A stretch of DNA of 64,000 nt from Candidatus Metaruminococcus caecorum (GCA_904420045.1 CAJFTY010000024.1:524-64523); one strand, 5' to 3'; counted from the first letter of the stretch, positions 648-64,000 are shown. The notes: generated by a model from the sequence alone, not told the origin. Numbers and translations are program-made.

Positions 648-6104
<5,457 letters not shown>

Positions 6105-6132
6105 TTCCAAGCATTCACAACGTATGATGTAG

Positions 6133-6176
6133 AAAAAACCTCCCCGGTGAACCAAGGCTTCACCGGGGAGGTTTTG
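6133..6176 (+). terminator. Rho-independent terminator after the beta-galactosidase gene
   Basis: A 12 bp stem CCTCCCCGGTGA / TCACCGGGGAGG (6139..6171) is followed by TTTT. Confidence 0.85.
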
Positions 6177-6438
6177 CGCTCTACGGGAAAACAGCGTGCA
6201 AAAAAATGTTGGGGACATTCCATTTTCTCTTCATTTGTGGTAGAATAAACTGCAAAGCAGCTATTCTACTTACAGAAGGCCATGGCGATTTTACCATTTC
6301 GCTTCATGGCAGAATAGCTACAAATAGCGATTTTACCTGCGGATCGCCCCGGTAGAATAAAAACTTTGTTTGAAACAAGTCTACGGTGGACAGTCCCGGC
6401 ACAGGGGAAGCCCCTTGGGGAAAGGAAGAAGATTGAAC

Positions 6439-7254
6439 ATGCAGCAGTTTATGGACGTACATACCCACAGCTCCTATTCGTTTGACGGTGTGGACTCCCC
6501 GGGGGCAATGGCAGACCGGGTACAGGAACTGGGCCTGGCAGTGTGGGCCCTCACCGACCACTGCGAGGCCAACGACCCCGACTCCGCCGGCTGCAAAACC
6601 GCCTGCACAGGCTCTTACGATGCAATACAGGAGCTCAGGGCATCGGGCAGATGCAGGGGCGTGGAGCTTTTGGCTGGAATCGAACTGGGGCAGATCATGC
6701 AGAATCAGGCGTTTGCGCTGGAGTGCCTGAAGGCACGGGAATACGATTTTGTCATCGGCTCGCTGCACAACAGCGCGGGACGCAAGGACTTTTATTACAT
6801 GAACGCTCAGGAGGCCCGCACGGATACGGCGCTGCTGGTAGAGGAATATTACCAGGAGATGCTCCAGATGGTGCGGTTGAATCAGTTGGACGTTTTAGGG
6901 CATTTGACCTATCCGCTGCGGTATGTGGTGGGGGAATACAAGATTCCCTTTGACATGGCTCCCTACGGGGATCTAATTGACGAGATCTTTAAAACCCTGA
7001 TCCAAAACGGCAAGGGGATCGAGATCAACACCTCCGGGCTGCGGCAAAAGCTGGGGCTCACCCTTCCCCACAAGCCCTACCTGCTCCGTTATCGGGAGCT
7101 GGGGGGCGAGCTGATTACCGTAGGCTCCGACGCCCACTGCGTTCAGGATCTGGGCAAGGGCGTCGGGGACGCGTATGAGCTTTTGCGGGAATGCGGGTTT
7201 TCGTACGTGCACTATTTTAAATCCCGTAAACCGGTAGCAATTAAAATCCGGTAA
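6439..7254 (+). CDS. PHP-domain histidinol-phosphatase (HisJ/HisK family)
   Basis: N-terminus MQQFMDVHTHSSYSFDG is the PHP metal-binding motif, with later TDHCE, GSLH and GSDAH motifs. I chose the internal ATG at 6439 (RBS AAAGGAAG) rather than the track start at 6370. Confidence 0.8.
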   Translation: MQQFMDVHTHSSYSFDGVDSPGAMADRVQELGLAVWALTDHCEANDPDSAGCKTACTGSYDAIQELRASGRCRGVELLAGIELGQIMQNQAFALECLKAREYDFVIGSLHNSAGRKDFYYMNAQEARTDTALLVEEYYQEMLQMVRLNQLDVLGHLTYPLRYVVGEYKIPFDMAPYGDLIDEIFKTLIQNGKGIEINTSGLRQKLGLTLPHKPYLLRYRELGGELITVGSDAHCVQDLGKGVGDAYELLRECGFSYVHYFKSRKPVAIKIR

Positions 7255-7382
7255 AGAAATGGGGAAAACGGTTGCAAACCCGGAAAACCCTGCTATAATA
7301 TAGTACAATTCCTGTGAAGGATTGTAGATAAACATCCACTGGGAAAGGGCGCGGAGGTTAACGTGCCTGGCACAGGAAAGGA

Positions 7383-10957: not shown

Positions 10958-11034
<77 letters not shown>

Positions 11035-15189: not shown

Positions 15190-15321
15190 ATTTTGTGCAG
15201 AAAAACAACATCAGTGCCGATTTGTCCCGCAAAAGCCTATTCTTTCTTTCCGGATTCCCTGCTATGATGAGAGTACAACAGGCGGGTACTAAACTGGAAA
15301 TGAATGGGAGGTTGCGGCTTT

Positions 15322-18300
15322 ATGATCCGAAAATGGAAGCGAACGCTTTGTCTTTTGATGGCGGGAGTAGTCAGTGCTTCTCTGCTTCTTCCGATCCAAA
15401 CGCTGACGGCGGGCGCGCAGGATGAATTCGTGTACGATGTGTCGTTTGAAAACAGCACCTACAAGGCCGACACCAAGGGCATTGACTTTGGCCGGAACGG
15501 GGATCAGTGGAAGCGAGGGCAGAGCTTTGTAGCTCTGGAAAACAGCGCCCTGACCTCGGTGGAGGTCAAAATCATCGCCGTGGACGAGCAAGGTGCTCCG
15601 GGGGATCTTACAGCGGAGCTATATCTCTGCGATCCAGACAGTAAAATGCCTGCGGGCGCGGCGCTGGCAACCGCCGAGCTGTCCGGGAAAGGCATTTCGG
15701 CCTCGGGGTTTTCGGTGGTGGAAATCCCGCTGCAGTATGACAAGCTCCAAAAGGGGAGCATGTACGCAGTGGTGCTGGGACAAAAAACCAAGACCGGGTG
15801 GTACGGCTGGTACTGTTCCTACGACAACTCGAATCCGAACTGGTGGCAGCCGGGCAGCGTCAATCCCCAGATCAAGCAAAAGGGGTGCGATGAAGATCTG
15901 CCCAGCTTTAAAATGAACGAGGACAGCCAGTTTTTGGACGACACCGGCTGCGGGGATCTGTGGCTGAAGGCACACTATGCTCCCAGGGAAGTGGAAGCGC
16001 TGTGCTACGACCTGTCGTTCGTCAACGACACCTACGGGCCGGACACCAAGGGGATCGACTTCGGCCGGGCCGGGGATCAGTGGAAGCGGGGGCAGACCTT
16101 TGCGGCCACCCAGGACAGCAACCTGGAATCGGTGACCGCCAAGATCATCGCTGTGGACGAGCAAGGGGCGCCCGGGGATCTCACGGCGGAGCTCTACCGG
16201 TGCGACAGTGAGACCAAAGCTCCCGTAGGCGAAGCCCTGGCAACCGCCGAGCTTTCCAAAGAGGCTGTTTCCGCCTCGGAATTCACCGAAGTGACCATCC
16301 CCCTGCGGTACGAGGGGATGAAGAAAGACGAGCTTTACACCGTGGTGCTGGGGCAAAAGACCCGAACGGGGTGGTACGGATGGTACTGCTCCTATGACAA
16401 CTCCAACCCGGAGTGGTGGAAGCCGCCGTTTGTCAACCCCCAGATCAAGCAAAAGGGGTACGATGAGGATTTGGCAAGTTTTTTGTATGCGGAGGATGGA
16501 ACGATGACCGACGATTCCCGCTGCGGCGATTTGTGGCTGAAGGCAAACTACAGCTTGGACGAAGTTCTGCAGCCTGAGGACGATTTGGCAACCCAGTATC
16601 AAAAAGATATGGAAAACGGCGGGCTTTCCTTTTACATGGACCGGATTTTAGCCCGCCCCGGCGTGGACCCGTCTTTGATCGAGGACTCTGGCTTGATGAC
16701 CCGGGGCAGGGCCCTGTACACCAAGGGAACCAACAGCAATGGACTGATCCAGGAGTTTGGCTTCGGCGGGACGATGCGCTACATCAAAGTGGACCGCACG
16801 GGCTACACCCTGCAAATCAACGGCAAGAAAGCCTCTGATTTTGTGGAGGACACCTCCCGGCGGGTGGACTATCCCAGCCACTGGACCTCTTTTTACACAG
16901 GAAAAGAGGGCGGCGCAGAGGCGGGCCTTGCGGTTACCACCAAGCGTTTTATCACTGAAAACAACACGGCAGTGACCATTTTGGAGATTCAAAACACCAC
17001 CGGCGCAGACAAAACTGTCGAGCTTTCCATGCTGGTTCCCTCCTGTAAGCAGAAGGATGGGGACACCCTGGTGGGCCAAGCGCGGGTGGACTATAAAAAT
17101 CTTGTGCTGAAGGCGTCGATGGACGGCGGAAAAATCTCTGGGGAGCAAATTCAAAAATCTGTGACCATCCCGGCGGGACAGACCGTGTCCCAAAAGGCGC
17201 AGATGGGCTTTATCGACGAAAAAGACGCCCAGACCGGTGCGGAGTACAAACAGTATGCGGGCTATACGCCCGAAAAGGCGTTTGAAACCCATGTGCAGAA
17301 ATACAACTACTGGTGGGTGGAAAACATCCCCAGCATGTGGGTGCCCGACGCGTATATTCAGAAAATGATCGCCTACCGCTGGTGGATCGCCCGGGCAAAT
17401 GTGGTGGACGCAGGCACCTACAGCTATCCGTTCCCCACCGCCATGGAGGGTGTGTTCGGGTACAACAACGCCATTGTCAACGCGGTTCCCTGGCAGATGG
17501 ACGAATCCCGGTATCTGCGCTCCCCCTTGGTGGGATACGGAACTTGGGCGGACGCTGCGTTTGTGGCCGCAGGCGGCATTTACAAGGATAACCCCGCCGG
17601 CGTCTGGGGCGTAAAGCCCCAGCACTACATCTCCAAAGCGGGGTGGGAAAATTATAAGGTCCACGGCGGTTCCACCGCGTTTTTAGAGGCGATGGCCGAC
17701 GCGGGCGCGGGAGATGTGCAGGGAACCAGAGCGAATTTTGACGCGGACGGCGACTATATCTACGACATCCAGTACGACGCCTGGGACAACGACACCGCTT
17801 CGTTGTCGGTAGGTGGCAAACAGCAGCGCATCGACACTGCAGCGCTTGCCTGGGCCAACGCCACGGCGGTCAGCGAAATGTACCGCGCGGCTGGCAATGA
17901 AAGCCAGGCAAAGGTGTATCAGGAATTCGCCAGCCAGATCCAAAAGGTGAACCTGCAAAACAGTTGGGACGCCGACTCTAAGCAGTTTTTGATGAAAACC
18001 GAAAGCGGCGCATTCATCCCCTTTCGGGACATCAACAACTACTACGCCTTTATGGTGGGGATGATCCCCCAGGATGCCGGGTATGACACGGCGCTGCGGG
18101 TGTGGGGCGACGAGACGGAGTTCCCCCTGTGGCCCATGTATGTCAGCAACTCCAAGGACTATGAAATCATCCAGAACGACGACCGGTACACCGACCGTTC
18201 CCGGAATTTCTCGCCTGGCAACACGGCCATCACCTTGAAGATGTTTGCGAACGTCATCAAGGAGTACGACGCGCCCAACATCACCGGAGAGGCGTTCATG

Positions 18301-20121
18301 GAGGTGCTCAAGCAGTACACCATGACCTGCTTTGTGAACAAAAACATCCACTATCCCGACGCCAACGAGTTCTGGAACGGCAATCCGGAAACCCCTTACC
18401 GCTCCTGGATCCATCACAACTGGCACTCCCAATACAACACCCTGATCATTGAAAACGTGATGGGAATTACCCCCAGGGACGACAAGGTAATTGAACTTCA
18501 TCCCATCGACGCGGGGATGGAGGCGTTTAAACTCACCAACGTCCGGTATCATGGCAAAGACATCGGCGTGGAGCTCAACCGGGACGGGTATCACCTGTAT
18601 GTGGACGGCAAAGAGGTCGCCGCAACCGACCGGCTGTGCCACTTTACCTGGGATTCTCAGACTGGCAAGGTGACGGTGCTGGACGACAGCGGGGCCGTGG
18701 TCAAAACAAACGCCGCCGTGACAGATTTTAAGGCCTCCAGCGAAGTGGAGTACAAAAACGACCGCGTGGCGGAGCTTATGGATGCGGCGGTGGACTACAA
18801 GCCCGGGGACACGGTGGTGGAAAAAGACACCCTGAAAACCGATGAAGATCCCGTCCATACCGGCAGTTACAAGCTGGTGCCCGAGGACGGATCGGACTGG
18901 GAGGAAAACTTTAACCTGGACTTCGGCGACCAAAACGGCGACCAGTACAAACGGGCCCAGATGTTCGTGGCCACCCAGGGAGGAACCATGACCGGCGTTC
19001 AGGTGATGATTAAAAACAAAACCGCTGCAAAAGACGTGACGGTGGAGCTGTACGACGCGGATCAAAATGGAAAGCCCGGACAAAAGCTTGCCTCCACGGT
19101 GATCCCGGTGGAAAAAATCCCCACGGATATGGGAATTGTGACGGCCCAATTTACCTACACGCTGGAAAAGGGAAAGGCATACTACATCATACTGGGCCAG
19201 GAGTCCGGCGGCGAGGGAATCTACTGCTGGGCGTTGAGCGCCAAGAGTATGGACACCGGTGTACAGGCCCGGCAGGAAGGCTACGACGGCGCCCTTGCCA
19301 TGTATAAAATCGAAAACACCGGCAATCTGGTCAACGAGACGAAACTGGGCGACTATTACCTGGAGGTGTTCTATCAGGAGAGCGCCGGCCACGTGCACGA
19401 CTGGTCACAGGAATGGAGCTCGGACGGTGAAAGCCACTGGCACACCTGCTCTGGCTGCGGGGAGATCAAAGACAAAGCTTCTCACAGCGGCGGCGAGGCG
19501 AACTGCTCTGCCAAAGCAAAGTGCACGGTCTGCGGCAGAGAATACGGGCAGCTTGACAGCGAAAAACACGATTTTGCAGCCGAGTTTACCGTGGACAAAG
19601 CGCCCACTTGCACAGAAAAGGGAGAAAAATCCAAACACTGCGTCCGCTGCGGCGCGGTAACCGAGGTCACCGAGATCCCTGCGCTGGGCCACGAGTACGG
19701 CAAGTGGGAGAAAAACGACGGGCAGACCCATAAAAAGGTTTGCAAAACCTGCGGCGATACGGACACCCAGGAGCATGCCTGGGACAGCGGAACGGTTACG
19801 ACGCCGCCCACCGACACGGCGAAGGGGGCAAAAACCTATACCTGTACAGTGTGCGGTGAAACCAAGGTTCAGGAGCTCCCCGCGCTGGGCGGTTCCCAGT
19901 CCCAGCCGCCACAAGAAAATCCCGGTCCGGACAATTCTCGTCCGGACGGCGTTCAGAGCCCCTCGTCAGAACAGGCGAATGAGCCCAGCGGGGAGTTAGA
20001 AAGCCCGCAGACGGGGGACGCAGTCCCCACCGCATGGGTTGGATTGTTGGCGGCCGCTTCCTTAGGAGCATTGGCTGCGGCAACCGGTAAACACAAGCGG
20101 CGGACCGGTTCTGATTCCTAG
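15322..20121 (+). CDS. Giant secreted surface protein (1599 aa): three copies of an unassigned ~190 aa domain, a central (alpha/alpha)6-barrel glycoside-hydrolase-like region (GH63/MGH1-like by eye), Cys-rich repeats and an SPQTG sorting signal
   Basis: RBS GGGAGG precedes ATG 15322 and there is a signal peptide (MIRKWKRTLCLLMAGVVSASLLLPIQTLTAGA). The central region contains DAWDNDTAS and IDTAALAWANATAVSEMYRAAGNESQAKVYQEFASQIQ, which resemble GH63/trehalase-type motifs. The C-terminus is SPQTGD followed by a hydrophobic stretch and KHKRR. Confidence 0.75.
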   Translation: MIRKWKRTLCLLMAGVVSASLLLPIQTLTAGAQDEFVYDVSFENSTYKADTKGIDFGRNGDQWKRGQSFVALENSALTSVEVKIIAVDEQGAPGDLTAELYLCDPDSKMPAGAALATAELSGKGISASGFSVVEIPLQYDKLQKGSMYAVVLGQKTKTGWYGWYCSYDNSNPNWWQPGSVNPQIKQKGCDEDLPSFKMNEDSQFLDDTGCGDLWLKAHYAPREVEALCYDLSFVNDTYGPDTKGIDFGRAGDQWKRGQTFAATQDSNLESVTAKIIAVDEQGAPGDLTAELYRCDSETKAPVGEALATAELSKEAVSASEFTEVTIPLRYEGMKKDELYTVVLGQKTRTGWYGWYCSYDNSNPEWWKPPFVNPQIKQKGYDEDLASFLYAEDGTMTDDSRCGDLWLKANYSLDEVLQPEDDLATQYQKDMENGGLSFYMDRILARPGVDPSLIEDSGLMTRGRALYTKGTNSNGLIQEFGFGGTMRYIKVDRTGYTLQINGKKASDFVEDTSRRVDYPSHWTSFYTGKEGGAEAGLAVTTKRFITENNTAVTILEIQNTTGADKTVELSMLVPSCKQKDGDTLVGQARVDYKNLVLKASMDGGKISGEQIQKSVTIPAGQTVSQKAQMGFIDEKDAQTGAEYKQYAGYTPEKAFETHVQKYNYWWVENIPSMWVPDAYIQKMIAYRWWIARANVVDAGTYSYPFPTAMEGVFGYNNAIVNAVPWQMDESRYLRSPLVGYGTWADAAFVAAGGIYKDNPAGVWGVKPQHYISKAGWENYKVHGGSTAFLEAMADAGAGDVQGTRANFDADGDYIYDIQYDAWDNDTASLSVGGKQQRIDTAALAWANATAVSEMYRAAGNESQAKVYQEFASQIQKVNLQNSWDADSKQFLMKTESGAFIPFRDINNYYAFMVGMIPQDAGYDTALRVWGDETEFPLWPMYVSNSKDYEIIQNDDRYTDRSRNFSPGNTAITLKMFANVIKEYDAPNITGEAFMEVLKQYTMTCFVNKNIHYPDANEFWNGNPETPYRSWIHHNWHSQYNTLIIENVMGITPRDDKVIELHPIDAGMEAFKLTNVRYHGKDIGVELNRDGYHLYVDGKEVAATDRLCHFTWDSQTGKVTVLDDSGAVVKTNAAVTDFKASSEVEYKNDRVAELMDAAVDYKPGDTVVEKDTLKTDEDPVHTGSYKLVPEDGSDWEENFNLDFGDQNGDQYKRAQMFVATQGGTMTGVQVMIKNKTAAKDVTVELYDADQNGKPGQKLASTVIPVEKIPTDMGIVTAQFTYTLEKGKAYYIILGQESGGEGIYCWALSAKSMDTGVQARQEGYDGALAMYKIENTGNLVNETKLGDYYLEVFYQESAGHVHDWSQEWSSDGESHWHTCSGCGEIKDKASHSGGEANCSAKAKCTVCGREYGQLDSEKHDFAAEFTVDKAPTCTEKGEKSKHCVRCGAVTEVTEIPALGHEYGKWEKNDGQTHKKVCKTCGDTDTQEHAWDSGTVTTPPTDTAKGAKTYTCTVCGETKVQELPALGGSQSQPPQENPGPDNSRPDGVQSPSSEQANEPSGELESPQTGDAVPTAWVGLLAAASLGALAAATGKHKRRTGSDS
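15433..16578 (+). repeat. In-frame tandem duplication (2 x 573 bp, 191 aa) inside the surface hydrolase gene; a third diverged copy lies at about 18904..19380
   Basis: Copy 1 starts YDVSFENSTYKADTKGIDFGRNGDQWKRGQSF and ends CGDLWLKAHY. Copy 2 starts YDLSFVNDTYGPDTKGIDFGRAGDQWKRGQTF and ends CGDLWLKANY. Long stretches are near-identical at DNA level (GTGGACGAGCAAGG.GC.CC.GGGGATCT.AC.GCGGAGCT). Confidence 0.9.
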
Positions 20122-54355: not shown

Positions 54356-55042
54356 ATGTTTTCTGCACTGATTTCGTTTGTGGCAACGCATCTTTTGTAC
54401 TTTGCACTGCATCTGGAGGGGAACGGCTCGTTCCCCAAACCTCTGTCTGCCAAGGAGGAAAAGCTGTGCTTCGATCAAATGGCAGCCGGGGACTTAAAGG
54501 CCCGGGATAAGCTGATTGAGCACAACCTGCGGCTGGTGGCGCACATTATTAAAAAGTACTACTCCGCCACCAACGACCAGGAGGATTTGATCTCCATCGG
54601 CACAGTGGGGCTGATCAAAGCGGTGGGGACGTTCGATTACAGCAAAGGCACCCGGTTTGCAACCTATGCGTCCAGGTGCATAGAAAACGAAATCCTGATG
54701 CACTTCCGAAACCTGAAAAAAACCTCAGGTGAGGTGTACATCAACGATCCCATTGATATGGACAAAGAGGGCAATACCCTGACCATGATGGACATTGTTG
54801 CCGACGACGAAAACATCATCGACAGCATTGATCTGAAACTGCGTTCCGAACAGCTCCACAAGCACATTGAAGGGGCGCTGGACGAGCGGGAACAGACCAT
54901 CATCAAGCTCCGCTATGGCTTGGGTGGCCGCAGGCCGATGACCCAGCGGGAAGTTGCGTCCAAGCTGCACATCTCCCGGTCGTATGTCAGCCGGATTGAA
55001 AAAAAGGCGCTGCTGATCCTCCGAAAAAAGATGGAGCAGTAA
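54356..55042 (+). CDS. sigK: Sporulation sigma factor K (pro-sigma-K, uninterrupted)
   Basis: The pro-sequence and cleavage region (LLYFALHLEGNGSFPKPLSAKEE) resemble B. subtilis pro-SigK (YVKNNAFPQPLSSSEE). EHNLRLVAHIIKKY, CIENEILMHFR and ISRSYVSRIEKKAL are present. I chose ATG 54356 over the track start at 54161. Confidence 0.88.
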   Translation: MFSALISFVATHLLYFALHLEGNGSFPKPLSAKEEKLCFDQMAAGDLKARDKLIEHNLRLVAHIIKKYYSATNDQEDLISIGTVGLIKAVGTFDYSKGTRFATYASRCIENEILMHFRNLKKTSGEVYINDPIDMDKEGNTLTMMDIVADDENIIDSIDLKLRSEQLHKHIEGALDEREQTIIKLRYGLGGRRPMTQREVASKLHISRSYVSRIEKKALLILRKKMEQ

Positions 55043-55108: not shown

Positions 55109-55454
55109 GGATGTTTGGAGCACGCCTGATTTTTTTCCTAGAATTGTGTATAAGCGAACGGTTATACATCGCTCGGCAAATGCCTCTGGTCACAAATTCG
55201 TGTCGACTGAGAGAAGAAAAATTGAAACTGGTTATTGCATTCAAAATTTAAACTTGTTATACTCAACGTAGATCAAATATAAGAATTGGCTTTGCAGCAG
55301 GCCAAGTGGTAAACAGGCTTGGTGAGGATTTGTCACAGGACGTTTTTATGCGCGTTTTTGTGGTGCGGCTGTGAAAGCGCATAAAAGCGGGCTGGAACAG
55401 TGGCCTGGAAAGGATTTTCCGGCTGCGGCTGCTCTGGCTGAAAGGGGTGATGTC

Positions 55455-58169
55455 ATGTCGATCGAACAGGAAGCCAAAGTCTTTATGGAACAGCTTCAGC
55501 AGGTGTATTATGTAGACAGAGATCTGAACAAAACGCTTTCGTTGATGGACAAGGACGTCAGATGGATTGGCTCAGGCCAGGCGGAAATTTGCCGGGGCCT
55601 GGAGCAGGCAAAAGCCTTGCTGGAAAAAGAACAGGCAGAATTTTATAATTCCTTTCAGATTTTAAAGTCGTCTTACGAGGCCGTGGCTCTTTCCAAGGAA
55701 TTTTGTTTTGTCTGGGGATTTTTGACGATACAGGAAAAAGCGCCCTACACCATTTTAATGGAGCTGAATGTGCGGGTGTCCGCCATCTGCCGTAAAACCG
55801 ACCAGGGGCTTCGGCTGTACGAACTGCATATGTCGCTTCCCAGTGCGGACCAGGATGACAGTGAATTTTTTCCGAAAAAACTTGCAAAAGAGGCCAATCG
55901 CAAGCTGGAACTGCTGCTCGCGGAAAAGTCGGAGGAAATTGAAGCTCGCAATCGGGATCTGAAAAATCTGATGCAAAATGTTCCCGGGGGGATTTTTCGC
56001 TGTCTGGACGATGAATCGCTGACCATTCGCCAGATGAGCGACGGCTTTTTATCCATGTTCGGATATACGCGGGAAGATATAAAAAACCGGTTTCACAACA
56101 GCTTTTTAGAGATGATCGCGCCCGAGGACCGGGAAAAGGCGCTGCAGGACGCCGCAGATCAGACCAAAAACAGCGACCGGAAAGAACTGCAGTACCGCGT
56201 AGTCTGCGCCGACGGCAGCCTGATGTGGGTGCTGGACAAAGGGCAGCTTTATCAAACCGGGGACGGGCAGAGGTCGTTTTACTGCGTTTTGGTGGACATC
56301 ACCGAGCAGAAAAAGGATCAGGAAGAAATCCGCAGAATGTTGGAACGCCATCAGATCATTATGAATCAGGCAAACGACATCATCTTTGAGTGGGATATTC
56401 TCAAGGATGGTTTTGTGTTTTCCAACAATTGGATGAAAAAATTTGGTTATGAGCCGCTGACCACTCGGGTTAGGGAATGCTTCCTGGAACAATCGCACGT
56501 CCATCCGGAGGACCGGCGTCTGTTTACAGACGCGATGGATTCCATCCGGGCGGGGATCCCCTATACAGAAACTACGATCCGGATTGAAAACGGCGATCAA
56601 AAATATCTTTGGTGCCGGGTGCGGATGACCGGTCAGTTTGACCGGCAGGGGCGTCCTTTTAAAGCAGTTGGCGTCATCGTGGACATCGACAGTGAAAAAA
56701 AGCAGTCGCAGCTATTGACCGAACGGGCCGAGCGGGATACGCTGACCAAACTTTACAATAAAGGAACCGCCCAGGTTTTGATTGAGCAGCACTTGGCCAC
56801 CTGCCGGGACGATGCGCTTAATGCGGTGTTAATAATTGATGTGGATAATTTTAAACAGATCAACGACTCAAAAGGGCATTTGTTTGGAGACGCATATTTA
56901 AGTGAAATTGCCCGCAGAATCAAAAAACTGTTCCGGGAACAGGATGTAGTCGGCCGTATCGGAGGGGACGAGTTTATCGTTTTCATGAAGGATATCACCG
57001 ATCCGGAGCTTGCCAAACGGCGGGCGGGACAGATTCTTGAAGAGTTTGCCAAGCTTTCCGTCAAGGATATACAAAGCCAGGCGGCCTCCTGCAGCATTGG
57101 GATTGTCGTTGCCCGGGGGAATTCCATGCGGTTTAAAGACCTTTTCCAGCGGGCGGACATGGCCCTGTACAGTGCAAAAAAGCAGGGAAAGCGGCGCTTT
57201 ATGGCTTACGACGACAGTATGGTGCAGGGATTTGCAGGAGAAAGCGCGGCCGCCGCACCGCATTCGGCGGTGGGCGATGTCATTGACTCGGAAAACCCGT
57301 CTCCAGCGGTGACCAGCACGCTGGTGGAAAATATTTTCCGCATTCTTTACGAGGCGCCGGATATTGAAGCAGCGGTGGGCGCAATTTTGGAAATTGTCGG
57401 CCGTCAGTATGATGTCAGCCGGGTTTATATCTTTGAAAACACAGAGGACGACCAGTATTGCAGCAACACCTTTGAATGGTGCAACGACGGGGTGGAGCCT
57501 GAAATTCAGCATTTAAAGCGGGTAAGCTATCAGGAAGACCTCAAAGGGCACTATCTGGATAACTTTAACAAAAATGGCGTGTTTTACTGCCGCGACATCC
57601 GGACGCTTCCTCAGGAGCAGTATGCAATTTTGCATCCGCAGGGCATTCAGTCCCTGCTTCAGTGCGCCATTCAGGACAATGGCAGGGTTAAAGGATATGT
57701 GGGCTTTGACGAGTGCCGCCACAGGCGGTTCTGGACGCAGGAGCAAATCGACACGTTGTCGCTCATATCCGAAATCCTCAGTGTATTCCTGCTGAAAAAG
57801 CGCGCGCAGGACAGCCTGGAAAAAGTGGTAGCCGGTATGCAGACGGTGCTGGATAATCAAAGCTCCTGGGTATACGTCATTGATCCGGACAGCTATCAAA
57901 TGTGGTTTGTCAACCAAAAGACTGTTGAGCTGGTGCCGGGTGTAAAGACAGGGGACTTTTGTTACCGTGCATTTTTCGGCAGAGAAACCCCCTGTGAACA
58001 CTGCCCGGCCAGGGAGTTTTTACAGGGGAACACCAGCTCCACGGAAATTTATAACCCGCAGCTAAACGTCTGGTCCTGCGTGGATGTATCTAAAATCCAC
58101 TGGGAAAATAAGCCGGCCTTGCTTTTGTCCTGTTATGACATCACCCGGTATAAGGTGCAGGAAGAATAA
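55455..58169 (+). CDS. Multidomain diguanylate cyclase: NTF2/SnoaL-like N-terminus, two PAS domains, active GGDEF with I-site, then GAF and a Cys-motif PAS-like domain
   Basis: RIGGDEFIVFM is preceded by REQD (RxxD exactly 5 residues upstream), and DTLTKLYNKG is the GGDEF entry motif. The PAS blocks are GIFRCLDDESLTIRQMSDGFLSMFGYTRED and DIIFEWDILKDGFVFSNNW. The C-terminus contains CYRAFFGRETPCEHC. I chose ATG 55455 (RBS AAAGGGG) over the GTG at 55371. Confidence 0.88.
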   Translation: MSIEQEAKVFMEQLQQVYYVDRDLNKTLSLMDKDVRWIGSGQAEICRGLEQAKALLEKEQAEFYNSFQILKSSYEAVALSKEFCFVWGFLTIQEKAPYTILMELNVRVSAICRKTDQGLRLYELHMSLPSADQDDSEFFPKKLAKEANRKLELLLAEKSEEIEARNRDLKNLMQNVPGGIFRCLDDESLTIRQMSDGFLSMFGYTREDIKNRFHNSFLEMIAPEDREKALQDAADQTKNSDRKELQYRVVCADGSLMWVLDKGQLYQTGDGQRSFYCVLVDITEQKKDQEEIRRMLERHQIIMNQANDIIFEWDILKDGFVFSNNWMKKFGYEPLTTRVRECFLEQSHVHPEDRRLFTDAMDSIRAGIPYTETTIRIENGDQKYLWCRVRMTGQFDRQGRPFKAVGVIVDIDSEKKQSQLLTERAERDTLTKLYNKGTAQVLIEQHLATCRDDALNAVLIIDVDNFKQINDSKGHLFGDAYLSEIARRIKKLFREQDVVGRIGGDEFIVFMKDITDPELAKRRAGQILEEFAKLSVKDIQSQAASCSIGIVVARGNSMRFKDLFQRADMALYSAKKQGKRRFMAYDDSMVQGFAGESAAAAPHSAVGDVIDSENPSPAVTSTLVENIFRILYEAPDIEAAVGAILEIVGRQYDVSRVYIFENTEDDQYCSNTFEWCNDGVEPEIQHLKRVSYQEDLKGHYLDNFNKNGVFYCRDIRTLPQEQYAILHPQGIQSLLQCAIQDNGRVKGYVGFDECRHRRFWTQEQIDTLSLISEILSVFLLKKRAQDSLEKVVAGMQTVLDNQSSWVYVIDPDSYQMWFVNQKTVELVPGVKTGDFCYRAFFGRETPCEHCPAREFLQGNTSSTEIYNPQLNVWSCVDVSKIHWENKPALLLSCYDITRYKVQEE

Positions 58170-58291: not shown

Positions 58292-59506
58292 ATGGATCGA
58301 AACCTCTCGGATGAGAAACAACTGAAGATACAAACCTTTGGGGGACTTTCCATCCGCTATGGGGATCGGGTGGTCTCGGAAAATACCGGCCGCAGCAAAA
58401 AGGTTTGGGAACTGATCCAGTATCTGATTGCGGTGCGGTACACAGGGGTTTCCGTGGAGCGGCTGATCGAAGCAGTCTGGGAGGACAAGGAACTGGAAAA
58501 CCCCATGAACGCGCTGAAAAACCTGGTATACCGGGCCCGCACCACCCTGAAGGCGCTGTCGCCTTCGGATGAAAAGGTGGAGTTTATCCGGTTTGAGCAC
58601 AACTCCTACCTTTGGAACACCGACCTTCCCTGTGTCGTGGACGCGGAGGAAATGGAACGCTGTCACCGTTTGGGATACGACACAAGCCGCGAGGAAAAAC
58701 AGCGGATGCAAAGCTTTGCCCGGGCAGTGGAGCTTTATCAGGGGGAATATCTGCCAAAATCTTCCTTTCTCGACTGGGTGATTGTGAAAAACGCCTATTA
58801 CGCCACGCTGTATAAAGAATGTGTTTTAGGTCTGGCAAAGCTCTTGTCCGACGATCAGCGACCGGATGAAGTCATCCGTCTGTGCGAGCGGGCGCTGGAG
58901 TTCTGCCCCTACGAGGAGGAGATCCACTGCGCGCTTTTAGCGGCCTATGCGGCCACCGGGCAGGAGAAAAAAGCGGCAGCTCATTACAGCCGCCTGAACG
59001 AGACGTTTTTCGATCAGTTTGGGGTGTCGCCTTCCCCAGAGACCACAGCGCTGTACAAATCGGTCATCAAGAGCCTGCACAACATTGAAACGGATCTTTC
59101 GGCAATCAAAGACGATCTGCGGGAAATCTGCGACCGCAAGGGCGCGTTCTGCTGTGACTATGATATTTTTCAAAACATCTACCGCTTGCAGGCCCGCTCG
59201 ATGGCCCGCACCGGAAGCAGCATTTACATTGCCCTTTTGACCATCACCGATGAAAGAGGGGAAGTCCCGTCCAAAGAGACCATCAAACGGGTGGTGCGGC
59301 CGCTGTACAGAATGGTAGCCGCTGGGCTGCGCCGGGGTGATGTAGTGGCTCCGTACAGCTCCACTCAGTTTGTAGTGATGCTGCCCATGACAACCTATGA
59401 AAGTGCGAAGATGGTCACCGGCCGCCTGCTGAGCCGGTGCAAACGGCTTTTGAATAAAGAAGAAGTCAAAGTGACGGTCACCGTCGCTTCGGTGGACCCT
59501 GTATAG
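58292..59506 (+). CDS. SARP-type winged-helix plus BTAD transcriptional regulator fused to a degenerate GGDEF domain
   Basis: The SARP part is LKIQTFGGLSIRYGDRVV...KKVWELIQYLIAVRYTGVSVERLIEAVWED...NALKNLVYRARTTL. The BTAD part is AVELYQGEYLP...ALLAAYAATGQEKKAAAHYSRLNETFFDQFGVSPSPETTALY. The C-terminal GGDEF fold reads LRRGDVVAPYSSTQFVVMLP where LRxxDxxxRYGGDEFxxxLP is expected. Confidence 0.85.
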   Translation: MDRNLSDEKQLKIQTFGGLSIRYGDRVVSENTGRSKKVWELIQYLIAVRYTGVSVERLIEAVWEDKELENPMNALKNLVYRARTTLKALSPSDEKVEFIRFEHNSYLWNTDLPCVVDAEEMERCHRLGYDTSREEKQRMQSFARAVELYQGEYLPKSSFLDWVIVKNAYYATLYKECVLGLAKLLSDDQRPDEVIRLCERALEFCPYEEEIHCALLAAYAATGQEKKAAAHYSRLNETFFDQFGVSPSPETTALYKSVIKSLHNIETDLSAIKDDLREICDRKGAFCCDYDIFQNIYRLQARSMARTGSSIYIALLTITDERGEVPSKETIKRVVRPLYRMVAAGLRRGDVVAPYSSTQFVVMLPMTTYESAKMVTGRLLSRCKRLLNKEEVKVTVTVASVDPV

Positions 59507-59549: not shown

Positions 59550-60773
59550 ATGATCCGATCAACCAAGGTTCGATCCCTTTCTGTGCTGTGCGCGGCCTGC
59601 TTTCTGGCATCTGTCCTTTTATCCTCCTGCGTGCCGGCAGTGGATGGGCCGAAAGATGCAAGCTCCTGGGGCAGCTCTGCGACAGCCTTCCAGGGGAGTT
59701 CGGAACAAGGCGCTTTCTCCTCCGGCGGGAGGGAGTATGAAGGAACGTCTGCGCCCAGCGTGTCCGCAGAGGATTCACAGTACGCTTCCCAGACGTCCAG
59801 ACAAAGCAGCCCGCACAGTTCTCAGAGCCGGGGGGAATTCTCGGCGGGGACGTCTTCTTCCCGAAGCTCATCCAAAGGGACGGGAGACGGCGCAAAGCCT
59901 TCTTCCAAGCCGGCGGGAACGAGTTCAAAAGGGGGAGGGGGAACCTCCGCAAAGCCTCCTGCACAAAGGCCTATATCGGTTAAAACTCCCAAGGCATCCG
60001 GATCGGTAGTGCTGGGAAAAGGCGGCACGTCCATCGACGCCAGCAACGGCGCGGAGGGCTACATCATGGTCAAGCACACCGGCAGCAGCAAGCGGCTGAA
60101 GCTGCAAATCAAAAAGGACGGCAAGACCTACAGCTACGATTTAAACAACAAGGGAAATTACGAAGTATTCCCATTGACGATGGGAAGCGGAAGCTACAGC
60201 GTGATGGTGGCGGAAAACATCGCCGGAACCAAGTACAGTGTGTTATACAACACCACCATTTCGGTCAAACTCAAGGATGCCCTGACAACTTATTTGTATC
60301 CCAGTCAGTACGTATGGTTTACCGCGTCCTCCAAGGCGGTGAAAAAATCCTACGAGCTGTGCGCGGGCAAGAACACCGAGCTTGAGATGGTGCAGGCGGT
60401 GTACTCCTATATCATTCAAAACATCAAGTACGATAAGAAAAAAGCGGCCACGGTGACGTCAGGCTACCTGCCCGATGCAGACGAGACCTTAAGCTCCGGC
60501 AAGGGAATCTGCTTTGATTACGCGGCGCTGCTGGCAGTGATGCTCAGGGCCCAGGGAATTCCCACCAAACTGGTCAAGGGAAAAGTGGCCCCCAACGATA
60601 TCAGCCACGCGTGGAACATGGTGTACGTCAAGGAAAAAGGGTGGATCAAGGTGGGATTTACCTTTCAGGCGAAAACCTGGACCCGGATGGACCCCACGTT
60701 CAGCGCCTCGCCTTCAGGGCTGACCGATTTTATCGGCAACGGAAAAAACTACACGGGACTGTATGAGTATTAA
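59550..60773 (+). CDS. Transglutaminase-like (Cys-protease-fold) lipoprotein with a Ser/Gly-rich linker
   Basis: Lipobox LLSSC, a low-complexity S/G/P linker, and the core GKGICFDYAALLAVMLRAQGIPTKLVKG...ISHAWNMVYV...WTRMDPT (Cys-His-Asp). Confidence 0.85.
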   Translation: MIRSTKVRSLSVLCAACFLASVLLSSCVPAVDGPKDASSWGSSATAFQGSSEQGAFSSGGREYEGTSAPSVSAEDSQYASQTSRQSSPHSSQSRGEFSAGTSSSRSSSKGTGDGAKPSSKPAGTSSKGGGGTSAKPPAQRPISVKTPKASGSVVLGKGGTSIDASNGAEGYIMVKHTGSSKRLKLQIKKDGKTYSYDLNNKGNYEVFPLTMGSGSYSVMVAENIAGTKYSVLYNTTISVKLKDALTTYLYPSQYVWFTASSKAVKKSYELCAGKNTELEMVQAVYSYIIQNIKYDKKKAATVTSGYLPDADETLSSGKGICFDYAALLAVMLRAQGIPTKLVKGKVAPNDISHAWNMVYVKEKGWIKVGFTFQAKTWTRMDPTFSASPSGLTDFIGNGKNYTGLYEY

Positions 60774-60805: not shown

Positions 60806-61873
60806 ATGGATACGAGCAACAAGCAAACCAAGCGCAGGCGCTATCTCCCCGCGTCGGAGCTTGCGATGTTCTGCGGACAACTGGCGATGATTTTGCAGTC
60901 GGATATCCTGCTCAGCGACGGAGTCGCCTCCCTGTGTGAAGAGGGAGCGCGAACCGGCAACGCCCAGGCGTTCGGACGGCTTCGGGACACCGTGCAGGAG
61001 ACCGGCTCCCTGTACCTGGCGGTCAAACAGGCAGGCTTTTTTCCGCCCTACCTTGTCAATATGGTGCGGGTGGGCGAGCAGGCGGGCAAGCTGGACGAGG
61101 CGATGGAAAGCCTCAGCCGGTACTACGAGCGGGAGGATCAAATCCGCAAATCCATCCGCAGCGCGGTGGTGTATCCCGCGGTGTTGATGCTGATGATGGC
61201 GGTGGTAATCGCGGTGCTGCTGATCAAGGTCATGCCGGTGTTTGCTCAGGTGTTTGACGATCTGGGCGGACAGGCGGTTTCCACCTCCAATGCGATGATG
61301 CGGTTCGGCATGACGGCGGGGATTTGCGCGCTGGGGCTGATTGGGCTGGCCTTTGTGGTCGTGCTGGCGCTGCTGATGGCCTCCCGCACCCAAAAGGGCT
61401 ATCGGGCCCTGATTCGGCTGGGGAGCCGTTTCCCGCTGACCAAGGGGATTTTTGCGAAGCTCACCTCCAGCCGGTTTGCGTCGGCCATGGCCATGCTTTT
61501 GCAGAGCGGCATGGACGTTGATGAATCACTGGAGCTGGCGCAGGAATGTGTCACCGACGAAGCAGGGCGGAGCAAGGCCGCCCGCTGCCGGGAGCTGATG
61601 GCCCAGGGCGTTACCTTTGCGGACGCGCTGGAACAGACCGAGATGTTTGAGCCGCTGTATCTGCACATGGTGCGCACCGGCAGCCAGACTGGCCGGGAGG
61701 ACATGGTGATGAAAAAGCTGGGCGAGCTTTGCTCCGGCCAGGCAGATGAGTCTTTGTCCCGTCTGGTTTCGGTGATCGAGCCTACGCTGGTGGCGGTGAT
61801 GAGCGTCATCATCGGCGCAATTCTGCTGGCGGTGATGCTGCCACTGACTGGCGCCATGTCCGCCATCGGGTAA
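60806..61873 (+). CDS. Type II secretion / type IV pilus platform protein (GspF/PilC/ComGB family)
   Basis: Two T2SS-F repeats are present: FCGQLAMILQSDILLSDGVASL...FPPYLVNMVRVGEQAGKLDEAMESL and FASAMAMLLQSGMDVDESLELA...FEPLYLHMVRTGSQTGREDMVM. There are three TM segments. The 355 aa size is ComGB-like. Confidence 0.9.
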   Translation: MDTSNKQTKRRRYLPASELAMFCGQLAMILQSDILLSDGVASLCEEGARTGNAQAFGRLRDTVQETGSLYLAVKQAGFFPPYLVNMVRVGEQAGKLDEAMESLSRYYEREDQIRKSIRSAVVYPAVLMLMMAVVIAVLLIKVMPVFAQVFDDLGGQAVSTSNAMMRFGMTAGICALGLIGLAFVVVLALLMASRTQKGYRALIRLGSRFPLTKGIFAKLTSSRFASAMAMLLQSGMDVDESLELAQECVTDEAGRSKAARCRELMAQGVTFADALEQTEMFEPLYLHMVRTGSQTGREDMVMKKLGELCSGQADESLSRLVSVIEPTLVAVMSVIIGAILLAVMLPLTGAMSAIG

Positions 61874-61953
61874 AAAATTCCAGCCCACAGGAAAAAATCC
61901 TGGGGAAACAATCCCTACGAGGTTTTGGGACACAGACGAAAGGAGGAGCAGCC

Positions 61954-62280
61954 GTGCATCTATACCGTCAGAAGAAATCCGTTCGCTGGGGAATTTTCGC
62001 GTCCCTGGCGTTGTTTGCAGCGGCTGTCCTGGCAGCGGCGTTTTTGCTTCAAAAAACCACCGACTCCGCATCGGCGGAACGCAAAAAACAGATGGAGGCA
62101 GCGATCCACAAGTCCATCGTAAGCTGCTACGCAGTGGAGGGCCAGTATCCAGAAAGCCTGGAGTATCTGGAAAAGCATTACGGGCTTTCGGTGGACCGGG
62201 ACCGGTTTGTGGTGGAATATTCGGTGTTTGCTTCCAACCTTTATCCCGCTGTGCAGGTGGCGGAAAGGGGGAACGGCTGA
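61954..62280 (+). CDS. Small N-terminally membrane-anchored protein of the type IV filament cluster (no family recognised)
   Basis: GTG start after strong RBS AAAGGAGGAG. It has MHLYRQKKSVRWG followed by IFASLALFAAAVLAAAFLL (TM) and about 70 aa of soluble sequence. There is no E at +5. Confidence 0.6.
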   Translation: MHLYRQKKSVRWGIFASLALFAAAVLAAAFLLQKTTDSASAERKKQMEAAIHKSIVSCYAVEGQYPESLEYLEKHYGLSVDRDRFVVEYSVFASNLYPAVQVAERGNG

Positions 62281-62281
62281 C

Positions 62282-62761
62282 ATGGGAAACCCGGTAAAAA
62301 ACGCCCATTCGGTGGACGTGGTTTTTGCAGTGGCACTGTTTGCGCTGTTCGCGGTGCTGTCCCTCATGCTGGTGCTCATCGGCGTGCGGTCTTACTCCGG
62401 CGCGGTGGAGCGCTCCGCAGCGGCCGCCCAGACCAGGGCTCAGGTGCTGTATCTGTCCAACAAGGTCCGGAGCGCCGACCAGGCGGGGGGCGTAGCCGTG
62501 CGGCAGGAAAACGGCATATGCGTGCTTTCCCTGGCGGAGGAAACGGACGGCGAGCCCTATGAAACCCTGATTTATTGTCACGATGGAAAATTGATGGAAC
62601 AGCTTGCGGCCAAAGGAGATTCGTTTGAGCCGGGAAACGGGCAGGAAATCGCCGAGGCCGCGTCCTTTCAGGCGTCTCTGTCCCAGAGCGGAAGGCTTTT
62701 GATCCAGGTGGGGAGCGGCGGGACGGTCCGTTCCTTTGAACTGGCGCTGCGCAGCCGGTGA
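62282..62761 (+). CDS. Small N-terminal-TM protein, pilin-like topology (possibly the DUF4860-type family seen next to T2SS-F genes in Clostridia; unverified)
   Basis: Its ATG lies 1 nt after the previous stop. It has MGNPVKNAHSVDVVFAVALFALFAVLSLMLVLIGV followed by an Ala-rich helix (SGAVERSAAAAQTRAQVLYLSNKV) and a beta-rich C-terminus. Confidence 0.6.
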   Translation: MGNPVKNAHSVDVVFAVALFALFAVLSLMLVLIGVRSYSGAVERSAAAAQTRAQVLYLSNKVRSADQAGGVAVRQENGICVLSLAEETDGEPYETLIYCHDGKLMEQLAAKGDSFEPGNGQEIAEAASFQASLSQSGRLLIQVGSGGTVRSFELALRSR

Positions 62762-62801
62762 CAGGGCGCGGCTTTTTCACAGGACGAAAGGAGGAGACAG
62801 G

Positions 62802-63260
62802 ATGAAAACGGTAAAATCCCGGGTGTTTTTAGTGGAACTGATTCTGGTGATCCTCTTTTTTGCGCTGTCCACGGCGGCGGTGCTGCAGTTGTTTATGGCG
62901 GCCAACCGGCAGAGCGAACGCAGCGAGCTGCGCACTCAGGCGCTGGTGGAGGCCCAGAACATGGCGGAACGGCTTAGAAATACGGAGCACCCTCAAACGG
63001 TGCTGGACAAAGAGGGATGGTCTGCCGTGGCATCGGGTCCATCCACCTGCTACACCCGTCGGTATGACCGGGCATTTCAGCCTTCCGGCGAAGGGGAGAT
63101 CGTGCTGTCCGTCACGGTCGAACAACAAAATTCCGAGGGAGGCGGAACGCTTTTGAAGATGAAGGTGGCGGTGGAGGACACCGCGGACAACGGCGGCAGA
63201 ACGCTCTGCTCCCTGGACGCGGACCGGTATCTCCCGGGATGGAAGGAGGGTGCGCGGTGA
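62802..63260 (+). CDS. Pseudopilin-like protein with a non-canonical class III signal (R instead of G at -1)
   Basis: MKTVKSRVFLVELILVILFFALSTAAVLQLF aligns with the canonical KGFTLVELLVVIAI prepilin N-terminus, including Glu at +5. RBS is AAAGGAGGAG. Confidence 0.7.
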   Translation: MKTVKSRVFLVELILVILFFALSTAAVLQLFMAANRQSERSELRTQALVEAQNMAERLRNTEHPQTVLDKEGWSAVASGPSTCYTRRYDRAFQPSGEGEIVLSVTVEQQNSEGGGTLLKMKVAVEDTADNGGRTLCSLDADRYLPGWKEGAR

Positions 63261-63742
63261 AAGCTTCCAACCGGTTCCACATCGGGACGGGCGTGTCCTC
63301 TTTAATCATGATTTTGGTGGTGCTTTGCCTGACGGTGTTCGCCGTGCTTTCTTACACCACCGCCCGGGCGGATGCGGCGCTGACCCAGAAAAGCCTGGAC
63401 GCCGCCGATGCGTACTACCGCGCCGCATCCCGGATGGAGCGCACGCTGGCCCAGGTGGATGGGGTGCTGGCCGCAGCCGCCGAACAGGCCGGCGATTCCC
63501 AGACTGCGTATCTGGCCGGTGCAAAAGAGGCGCTGTTAAAGCTTGACGGCGCCAAGGCAGAGCAGGCGGGCGAGGGACTCACCCTGATCCTTCAACAGGA
63601 TCTTGGGGACGGCAGAACTCTGCGGGCAGTGCTGGACATCCCGCCCGCGGGAGACGCGCGGTACCGGATCGAGTCTTATAAACTGCTGCCTGTTCAAAAC
63701 TGGAACCCGGATTCGGACGTGCAGGTCTGGCCAGGGGAGTAG
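63257..63742 (+). CDS. Minor-pseudopilin-like protein (G at -1, no Glu+5)
   Basis: Its GTG overlaps the previous stop (GTGA). It has VKASNRFHIGTG followed by VSSLIMILVVLCLTVFAVLSY and a long Ala-rich helix. This resembles GspK/ComGF-type minor pilins lacking E5. Confidence 0.55.
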   Translation: MKASNRFHIGTGVSSLIMILVVLCLTVFAVLSYTTARADAALTQKSLDAADAYYRAASRMERTLAQVDGVLAAAAEQAGDSQTAYLAGAKEALLKLDGAKAEQAGEGLTLILQQDLGDGRTLRAVLDIPPAGDARYRIESYKLLPVQNWNPDSDVQVWPGE

Positions 63743-63772
63743 AAATTCCGCATTTAGAAAGGATCGGTCAAC

Positions 63773-64000
63773 ATGCAGATCATGGAAGTTTTAAAGCGGG
63801 CGGTTCAAACAGGCGCGTCCGACCTGTTTCTGGTGTCCGGATGTCCGCTGTCCGCAAAAGTTAACGGGGAGATCGCCTATTTCAGCCAGGAGAAGCTGGA
63901 CAGCGGCGTCGCGCAGGGGTTAATCTCTGAAATCTATGAGATTGCCCATCGGGACCAGTTGGGGCGGTTGATGCAAACGGGTGACGACGACTTTTCGTTT
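63773..64000 (+). CDS. PilT/ComGA-type type IV filament ATPase, N-terminal 76 aa only (runs off the right edge)
   Basis: Manual translation gives MQIMEVLKRAVQTGASDLFLVSGCPLSAKVNGEIAYFSQEKLDSGVAQGLISEIYEI. This matches the PilT N-terminal domain pattern (AVEQGASDLHLTVGSPPMIRVNGEL). It is absent from the ORF track because there is no stop in the window. Confidence 0.75.
   Translation, partial: MQIMEVLKRAVQTGASDLFLVSGCPLSAKVNGEIAYFSQEKLDSGVAQGLISEIYEIAHRDQLGRLMQTGDDDFSF

Follow-up and report, generated by a model that had tools for sequence, protein, structure and literature searches.

Gene content and boundaries of the cassette

The DNA examined (hereafter the window) is a stretch of 64,000 nucleotides (nt) from Candidatus Metaruminococcus caecorum (GCA_904420045.1 CAJFTY010000024.1:524-64523). 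Its 3' end carries a seven-gene cassette encoding a transglutaminase-like lipoprotein, a platform, four small bitopic proteins (termed s1 to s4) and a PilT/PilU-family ATPase, the latter six genes forming a cluster of the type IV filament (TFF) type. All of the genes are on the plus strand. The first (59550-60773) was assigned from Pfam matches and an LSSC lipobox as the gene for a transglutaminase-like (papain-fold Cys-His-Asp) surface lipoprotein, and the second (60806-61873) encodes a PilC/GspF/ComGB-like polytopic platform of 355 amino acids (aa) containing Pfam T2SSF domains. The gene for the 108-aa bitopic protein s1 (61954-62280) begins with a GTG codon located seven bases past an AGGAGG ribosome-binding site and is followed by the genes for s2 (62282-62761; 159 aa), a member of the Pfam family DUF4860, and s3 (62802-63260; 152 aa), a minor-pilin-like protein with a Glu at pilin position +5. 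The next product, s4 (63257-63742; 161 aa), is a ComGG-like, cap-type pilin-like protein in which a Gly precedes the hydrophobic helix and Glu5 is absent; the GTG start of its gene is contained in a GTGA sequence that overlaps the s3 stop codon by 4 nt. The final gene starts with ATG at position 63773 and is truncated by the window end at 64000, such that only the N-terminal 76 aa of a hexameric PilT/PilU-family ATPase (TIGR01420) are encoded in the window. The spacers from the platform gene through to the ATPase gene measure 80, 1, 40, -4 and 30 nt. An initial annotation, made from the sequence alone, had described these six genes as a co-directional block, and the gaps, protein sizes and N-terminal motifs that it reported were reproduced exactly from the open reading frame (ORF) list and the raw sequence.

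The remainder of the ATPase gene was located on a metagenomic contig. A platform protein of identical sequence is encoded on 22 such contigs, the longest of which (i.e. L001) is identical to the window and contains the complete ATPase gene (L001:12968-14029; 353 aa). A strong terminator, comprising a 10-bp stem with 8 GC pairs and a T-run, is present at L001:14046-14070, 17 nt past the PilT stop codon, indicating that the operon ends at the ATPase gene. The next gene is found after a 340-nt gap (L001:14369-14665) and, as judged by a GVGKT Walker motif, looks like a gene for a MoxR-type AAA ATPase that is unrelated to the cassette. Extension of the contig had been proposed in the initial annotation as a check for a PilD and a pilin with a GFxxxE motif; neither was encountered immediately downstream, where the terminator is followed by the unrelated gene. 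Similarly, the view that PilD, a major pilin, PilMNO and a secretin are missing from the cluster was borne out, as the terminator comes directly after the ATPase gene. No second platform or ATPase was detected by phmmer in the 64-kb window.

Conservation of the cassette across Clostridia

Orthologues were sought in one genome per GTDB species (i.e. 185,579 species representatives). The relatives analysed comprise 80 loci (L009-L088), whose platforms are 31-45% identical to the platform of the window. Among the search queries, the productive one was a short s1+s2 sequence from which the transmembrane parts had been removed; a protein search with s2 alone recovered only s2 itself, and a 21-row concatenated alignment of s1 to s4 gave no match among 8000 candidates, a number that was probably a cap. 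Comparisons of the six window proteins by phmmer identified the order platform, s1, s2, s3, s4, PilT in essentially every relative (73 of 80 loci). These 73 loci each contain a single platform and a single T2SSE-family ATPase within +/-10 kb, and the other seven are cut by contig ends. Recurrence of the same six-gene order at this level of platform identity places the arrangement far beyond chance. The carriers belong to the Oscillospiraceae, Christensenellaceae, Lachnospiraceae and other Clostridia, and include Anaerotruncus, Faecalispora, Christensenella, Pseudobutyrivibrio, Agathobacter, Roseburia and Eubacterium-like Lachnospiraceae. Conservation of the gene order, which the initial annotation had suggested examining in related Oscillospirales genomes, is hence much wider than that order. 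The extent originally given to the cluster was correct for the block from platform to ATPase but too small for the unit as a whole, as 71 loci have an orthologue of the transglutaminase-like gene immediately ahead of the platform gene and 36 have a linked regulator.

The wider neighbourhood of the cassette depends on the lineage, with glgCD/spoVG/pth/mfd in one group and holB/ricT/rsmI in another (genes named from their translations). Clustering of neighbouring ORFs from the 80 loci revealed no conserved neighbours besides the transglutaminase-like gene and the regulator. As the other neighbours vary between lineages, the cassette behaves as a self-contained unit. A decaying remnant was ruled out, as both motifs and gene order are kept across families. 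The closest platform orthologue in the GTDB representatives, with 45% identity, is from a metagenome-assembled genome of the Gracilibacteraceae; the window organism seems to be without a genus-level representative in this set, though identical contigs occur in several metagenomes.

The platform and the PilT-family ATPase

Two T2SSF domains (PF00482) were detected in the platform by Pfam (3.3e-42). NCBIfam scores for GspF (196.2 bits versus a cutoff of 424), ComGB (NF041012; 133.3 versus 240) and PilC (147 bits) were all under the equivalog cutoffs, and the best match in the PDB was Myxococcus xanthus PilC (4.9e-33).

The ATPase gave a more specific result. Only TIGR01420 (pilT_fam) was matched in NCBIfam by the 76-aa fragment, and the full 353-aa protein scored 429.9 bits against this model (cutoff 319.1) as compared to 136.8 bits against ComGA (NF041000; cutoff 300). 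The GspE and PilB models cover the ATPase core only, and Pfam T2SSE was matched at 8.9e-42. An end-to-end alignment was obtained with Aquifex PilT (2gsz; 2.4e-109), including the PilT-specific AIRNxIRE motif. Walker A and B, the Asp box, the His box and AIRNMIRE are all kept in 71 PilT orthologues with identities of 53-65%. On these sequence criteria, the cassette ATPase is a genuine member of the PilT/PilU family and not a ComGA or a GspE. These assignments agree with the initial annotation, which had recognised a TFF-type cluster consisting of a platform, a PilT-type ATPase and four small proteins without canonical prepilin motifs. Identity as a SpoIIIA-like or Tad-like system was considered and ruled out by the combination of a PilT-family ATPase with two T2SSF domains in the platform.

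Pilin-like features of the four small proteins

Of the four small proteins, s3 is the clearest relative of pilins. A Glu aligned with the pilin Glu5 is found in 72/72 family members, as exemplified by the window motif KSR/VFLVE (where the slash separates positions -1 and +1). When the s3 family profile was compared with PDB sequences, 13 of the 16 marginal matches (E 0.02-2.2) were type IV pilins or geopilins, with alignment in the L-I/M-E-L register among the matches listed. Sub-threshold NCBIfam matches were obtained to ComGE in 7 of 36 members (best 3.7e-4), to PilV in three and to GspI and XpsI in two each, and Pfam N_methyl was matched by one of 36 members (E 0.05). The pilin-like label is accordingly well founded for s3 at the level of sequence. 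The residue at -1 varies between Arg (31 of 72), Pro (18), Ser (7), Gly (7), His (3), Lys (2) and Ala, Thr, Asn or Leu (1 each), such that only eight members have a Gly or Ala at this position, as would be needed by a PilD-type enzyme.

For s4, a Gly precedes the hydrophobic helix in 74/74 sequences (GTG/VSSLI in the window), and position +5 is always hydrophobic with no Glu5. Sub-threshold NCBIfam matches to ComGG were found in 9 of 37 members (best 0.0026), and no Pfam family was matched. ComGG is normally without Glu5, and has been termed non-canonical and missed by both InterPro and PilFind (PMC7212644); s4 therefore resembles an ordinary ComGG-type cap pilin and is not an oddity in this respect. 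Its pilin-like label appears reasonable given these weak sequence similarities. The leaders of streptococcal competence (Com) pilins end in Ala at -1 (PMC7212644), showing that the initial premise that PilD-type peptidases require Gly at this position was too strict. In some lineages, the leaders of s3 and s4 look cleavable (e.g. KSG/LFLME).

The s2 protein matched Pfam DUF4860 (PF16152) at 4.5e-21 with 75.1 bits (cutoff 25), and its homologues are labelled 'DUF4860 domain-containing protein' in NCBI and UniRef. ComGF was matched below threshold by 2 of 36 members (best 1.1e-3), and no other informative sequence match was obtained for s2. An Asp or Glu is present at the edge of the N-terminal helix in 71 of 80 sequences. 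In an AlphaFold model built from a 59-sequence alignment (predicted local distance difference test, pLDDT, of 89.3), a 59-residue helix (6-64) is followed by eight beta-strands. The highest-probability Foldseek match for this model was the type IV-like pilin TTHA1219 of Thermus thermophilus (probability 0.82, E 0.15, template modelling (TM) score 0.33).

The most conserved of the four proteins is s1, in which the head motif CYAxEGxYP...Y..YG is invariant and the N-terminus is a plain basic signal-anchor without a conserved Gly or Glu. The s1 family comprises 1297 clusters at 50% identity among 1.84 billion representatives; no Pfam or NCBIfam family was matched, homologues were named only 'hypothetical protein', and a look-up of members for ten cluster representatives gave no names. 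Marginal profile matches were to the TcpA and CFA/III pilins. The AlphaFold model of s1 (pLDDT 88.3) contains a 58-residue helix (5-62), a short helix and a beta-hairpin, and its top Foldseek matches were full-length type IV pilins (i.e. Neisseria gonorrhoeae PilE and T. thermophilus PilA4) with E values of 1.8-8. Both models thus predict the lollipop architecture of pilins, with a helix and a beta head, and the pilin-like label of s1 and s2 would be an architectural one only. A check for this fold had been recommended in the initial annotation: the architecture was obtained with good model scores, but a significant Foldseek match was not.

No recurrent pilin family emerged when members of s1, s3 and s4 were scanned with Pfam, and the s2 and s4 profiles produced only noise against PDB sequences. 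Among the Pfam families that the initial annotation had listed for searching, T2SSF, T2SSE and DUF4860 were found but N_methyl was not detected, save for the single s3 member mentioned above. Weak pairwise links between the family profiles were observed with hhalign (s3-s4, 89%; s4-s2, 85%; s3-s1, 75%), and comparison of the four profiles with single Escherichia coli GspG-K, GspL, GspM and GspC sequences gave probabilities of <=11%. From the sequence, Foldseek and profile-comparison results, a description of the small proteins as pilin-like is well justified in the case of s3 and reasonable in that of s4, whereas for s1 and s2 it concerns the architecture only; the initial annotation, which had applied this term to all four, is upheld firmly for the first and weakly for the second, whilst the other two have only a predicted architecture and no significant match.

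These features bear on an alternative in which s1 to s4 are uncleaved, membrane-anchored stator or structural parts, comparable to the archaellin-like FlaF/FlaG proteins or, in function, to PilN/PilO and GspL/GspM. Through such parts, a PilC-PilT motor would be connected both with the cell wall and with the transglutaminase-like enzyme, e.g. for remodelling the wall locally. Leaders that look non-cleavable in most lineages, conservation of a surface Cys-His-Asp enzyme in the operon, and the lack of both a major pilin and a significant structural match to solved pilins are consistent with this alternative. However, the invariant Glu5 of s3 and Gly of s4 are hallmarks of filament subunits, the predicted helices with all-beta heads are unlike the ferredoxin-like domains of PilN/O and GspL/M, and the hhalign comparisons with GspL, GspM and GspC were negative. 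We consider it improbable that the small proteins are stator parts, and to the same degree improbable that they link the motor to the wall.

Filament components not found at the locus

Six-frame regular-expression searches of the 64-kb window found neither a canonical class III pilin motif nor the prepilin-peptidase motif GxGD(V/F)K(L). One chance-looking match per pattern was obtained in the flanks (+/-10 kb) of the 80 loci: the peptidase pattern as GAGDIKI towards the C-terminal end of a 536-aa ORF (L088) and the pilin pattern on the opposite strand (L078). No prepilin peptidase (A24) was found in the window or in the neighbour-family clusters of the 80 loci, a local search that leaves a copy in trans possible, and PilB, PilM/N/O, PilD and a canonical major pilin were not found in the operon or within +/-10 kb, again by local search only. 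Processing of the subunits may be unusual, or a peptidase may be encoded elsewhere.

The cassette could be accessory to a canonical type IVa pilus (T4aP) encoded elsewhere in the genome, to which it would supply PilT, a second platform and four minor (tip/priming) pilins, with PilB, PilD, PilMNO and the major pilin acting in trans. Separate genomic locations for minor-pilin operons and pilT, away from pilB and pilD, are common, and the cleavable-looking leaders of s3 and s4 in some lineages fit this proposal. A conserved priming set of four minor pilins is present in T4aP, type II secretion systems (T2SS) and Com (PMC7212644), MSH loci are without their own peptidase and borrow one (PMC6668835), and type IV pili are widespread among Clostridiales (PMC6916266). 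Set against these points is the strict co-inheritance, in one operon in 73 loci, of the genes for the platform, s1 to s4, PilT and the transglutaminase-like protein. In a pilus system, one platform normally serves both motors. Furthermore, no other pilus gene is located within 10 kb, s1 is devoid of class III features, and 64 of 72 s3 proteins lack a Gly or Ala at -1, including 49 with an Arg or Pro, residues not known to be accepted by PilD-type enzymes. Dependence on a pilus encoded elsewhere is a serious but, on balance, unlikely explanation.

Comparison with known systems

The ComG machinery of monoderm Bacilli resembles the cassette in its minimal make-up, in which a single ATPase is combined with a single platform (~340-355 aa) and small pilin-like proteins, and PilMNO and a secretin are lacking. 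The s4 protein is like ComGG in having a tiny residue ahead of the helix and no Glu5, and there are recurrent weak matches of s3 and s2 to ComGE and ComGF. A divergent Com pseudopilus of Clostridia for DNA uptake would be consistent with the ComGB-sized platform, with the simplicity of the machinery and with the fact that ComGF, ComGE and ComGG are the only recurrent sub-threshold families of s2, s3 and s4, respectively. In contrast, the ATPase is clearly a PilT, scoring less than half of the ComGA cutoff (136.8 versus 300), and is encoded by the last gene whereas comGA is the first gene of comG; the platform likewise falls well below ComGB (133 versus 240). The cassette also differs from Com in lacking a ComGC class III pilin and ComC, in leaders that are mostly without Gly or Ala at -1, and in the addition of a transglutaminase-like lipoprotein and a regulator with BTAD and GGDEF-derived domains. 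No linked comEA, comEC or comF was present among the recurrent neighbour families. A role as a DNA-uptake pseudopilus is very improbable.

The T4aP of monoderms (e.g. Clostridium and Streptococcus sanguinis) share with the cassette a PilT with AIRNxIRE, a PilC-like platform and clustered minor pilin-like proteins. Conserved parts of monoderm T4aP are considered to include PilB, PilMNO, PilD and a major pilin (PMC6916266), whereas neither the cassette operon nor the DNA up to 10 kb away encodes PilB/PilF, PilD, PilMNO or a canonical major pilin. The T2SS tip (i.e. GspH-I-J-K) is comparable in that four pseudopilin-like proteins are found beside a GspF-like platform, with one member having Glu5 and one cap-like member being without it, but GspE, GspD, GspC, GspL and GspM are missing from the cassette and the host has no outer membrane. 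In two reports, a single ATPase (CpaF of Tad) or PilT (in the mannose-sensitive haemagglutinin (MSHA) pilus of Vibrio cholerae) is described as aiding both extension and retraction (PMC11300603, PMC9815625). These systems differ from the cassette in having canonical pilins and a peptidase, and the Tad ATPase and platform belong to other families.

By membership tests applied to the locus, the cassette fails the definitions of Com, T4aP, T2SS and Tad, in line with the initial annotation, which had suggested that the locus was not a standard Com or T4aP system, and extending it to the other two. Two of the defining elements of TFF systems are present, i.e. a T2SSE/PilT-type ATPase and a platform with two T2SSF domains. 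For the class III signal peptide (a short leader with Gly or Ala at its end, ~21 hydrophobic residues and Glu5), the picture is mixed, with Glu5 but seldom Gly or Ala at -1 in s3, Gly but no Glu5 in s4, only an Asp or Glu at the helix edge in s2 and neither feature in s1. Denise et al. (PMC6668835) make an HMM-detectable (hidden Markov model) major pilin a requirement of their generic TFF model, and the cassette would probably fail this model; this demand may explain why the cassette has gone unnoticed. Searches of a literature collection found no description of the cassette itself, no paper on DUF4860 and nothing relevant on pili of Pseudobutyrivibrio, Christensenella or Lachnospiraceae. The cassette is a real and strongly conserved TFF variant that is apparently undescribed, its salient traits being the PilT-only motor, the degenerate signal peptides and an obligatory transglutaminase-like partner.

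The transglutaminase-like lipoprotein and the linked regulator

The product of the first cassette gene matched Pfam Transglut_core (1.3e-23) and DUF553 (6.9e-11). The catalytic triad is retained across the family (Cys in 71/72, His in 72/72 and Asp in 72/72), and a lipobox is present in at least 41 of the 72 members. Pseudomurein endoisopeptidases share a transglutaminase-like fold, and a role as a wall endopeptidase might be suggested for the lipoprotein.

The linked regulator (58292-59506, plus strand) combines, according to Pfam, a winged helix (Trans_reg_C, 3.4e-05) and a SARP-like BTAD domain (4.8e-16) with weak diguanylate-cyclase matches at the C-terminus. In 36 loci, an orthologue is encoded no more than ~5 kb from the cassette (e.g. 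L031:7310-8560). The RxxD I-site is found in 37/37 sequences and GGDEF is replaced by (Y/F)SxxQ(F/Y) in 37/37. Retention of RxxD alongside decay of GGDEF leads to the expectation of a receptor for cyclic di-GMP (c-di-GMP) rather than a cyclase, and the regulator is a candidate c-di-GMP-responsive transcription activator. The cassette is therefore possibly under c-di-GMP control. An Rfam scan of the window found a single tRNA gene only (10958-11031) and no riboswitch, including the c-di-GMP type, before the cassette.

Directly upstream of the regulator is a gene for a PAS-PAS-GGDEF protein (55371-58169) with an intact cyclase domain (TIGR00254, 5e-38), which was called on contig L001 as a 904-aa protein (4653-7367) with an unassigned C-terminal extension of ~300 aa; this protein could be a source of c-di-GMP for the regulator. 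In the Pseudobutyrivibrio loci inspected (L027 and L031), a conserved 140-aa ORF (L027:8561-8983) without a Pfam match is placed between the regulator and the transglutaminase-like gene; its family is present in 29 loci.

Further upstream, a sigK gene (54356-55042; TIGR02846, 302.5 bits versus a cutoff of 298.65) adjoins a ylxM-ffh-rpsP-rimM-trmD block of the opposite strand, and the window organism is probably a spore-former. Pseudobutyrivibrio is not known to sporulate; the presence of the cassette in this genus indicates that it is not specific to sporulation. Two long ORFs at 648-6101 (1818 aa) and 15304-20118 (1605 aa) have signal-peptide-like N-termini, and their products may be surface or adhesin proteins.

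A proposed compact and divergent TFF machine

The best explanation is that the cassette is a compact, divergent and self-contained member of the TFF superfamily that is widespread in Clostridia, a reading that could equally prove right or wrong. In its favour are the cassette order kept at 31-45% platform identity, the single ATPase and platform per locus, the assignment of the ATPase to the PilT/PilU family, the invariant Glu5 of s3 and Gly of s4, the models of s1 and s2, the profile links among the four small proteins, the results of the PilD and pilin motif searches in window and flanks, the terminator, the conserved triad and RxxD motif, and the size of the s1 family. In such a machine, the PilT-family hexamer would dock on the PilC-like platform as the sole motor of the cassette and would drive both assembly and disassembly of four bitopic pilin-like proteins joined via their hydrophobic N-terminal (alpha1) helices. 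A ComGG/GspK-like cap without Glu5 would be provided by s4 and a ComGE/GspI-like subunit with Glu5 by s3, whilst s2 (DUF4860) would be the bulky, beta-sheet-headed member and s1, which is small, a candidate for the main or repeating subunit. Polymerisation of these proteins would generate a short pseudopilus or tip-like complex reaching into or through the cell wall, for which a prepilin peptidase would be dispensable. On the outer face, the co-transcribed and catalytically intact transglutaminase-like lipoprotein would act alongside, perhaps by remodelling of the wall or by cross-linking or processing of the assembled proteins. Expression is probably tied to c-di-GMP by the BTAD regulator, whose GGDEF domain is degenerate.

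A bolder version of the self-contained machine treats the cassette as an unclassified, self-sufficient TFF class in which PilT is the sole motor, no cleavage site or peptidase is used and the transglutaminase-like partner is integral; this version is tentative and rather doubtful. Equally speculative is its corollary that DUF4860 and the s1 family are signature subunits of a class that is invisible to models based on pilins or of the TXSScan type.

Several observations weigh against a self-contained filament machine. Foldseek searches of the PDB with the s1 and s2 models gave no significant match (best E 0.05-0.15 for s2 and 1.8 for s1; TM scores <=0.36), the hhalign comparisons with E. coli GspG-K were negative, and the likenesses to ComGE, ComGF and ComGG are all below curated cutoffs. 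PilB, PilD and pilins may be encoded in trans, as the searches for them were local. PilT is classically a retraction motor, and no type IV filament is known to assemble without a prepilin peptidase. The leaders of s3 that carry an Arg or Pro at -1 (49/72), together with the signal-anchor of s1, should result in membrane retention. Extrusion of a true filament is doubtful, given the uncleavable look of most leaders and the lack of a linked peptidase.

Should the cassette prove to be self-sufficient, it would break two rules, i.e. that the subunits of these filaments are cleaved by a peptidase and that PilT acts in retraction only. It would also provide a function for DUF4860 and for an unnamed family of >1000 clusters, which is common among Clostridia of the gut and rumen (including Christensenella, Anaerotruncus, Pseudobutyrivibrio, Agathobacter and Eubacterium-like Lachnospiraceae). 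Were a canonical pilus from another locus required instead, the cassette would still represent a conserved and unannotated module of minor pilins, a platform and PilT. Given its ties to a transglutaminase-like surface enzyme and to a regulator that probably senses c-di-GMP, the cassette may provide abundant commensals with a regulated device of the envelope or for adhesion, and a device of this type would escape pilin-based detection tools.

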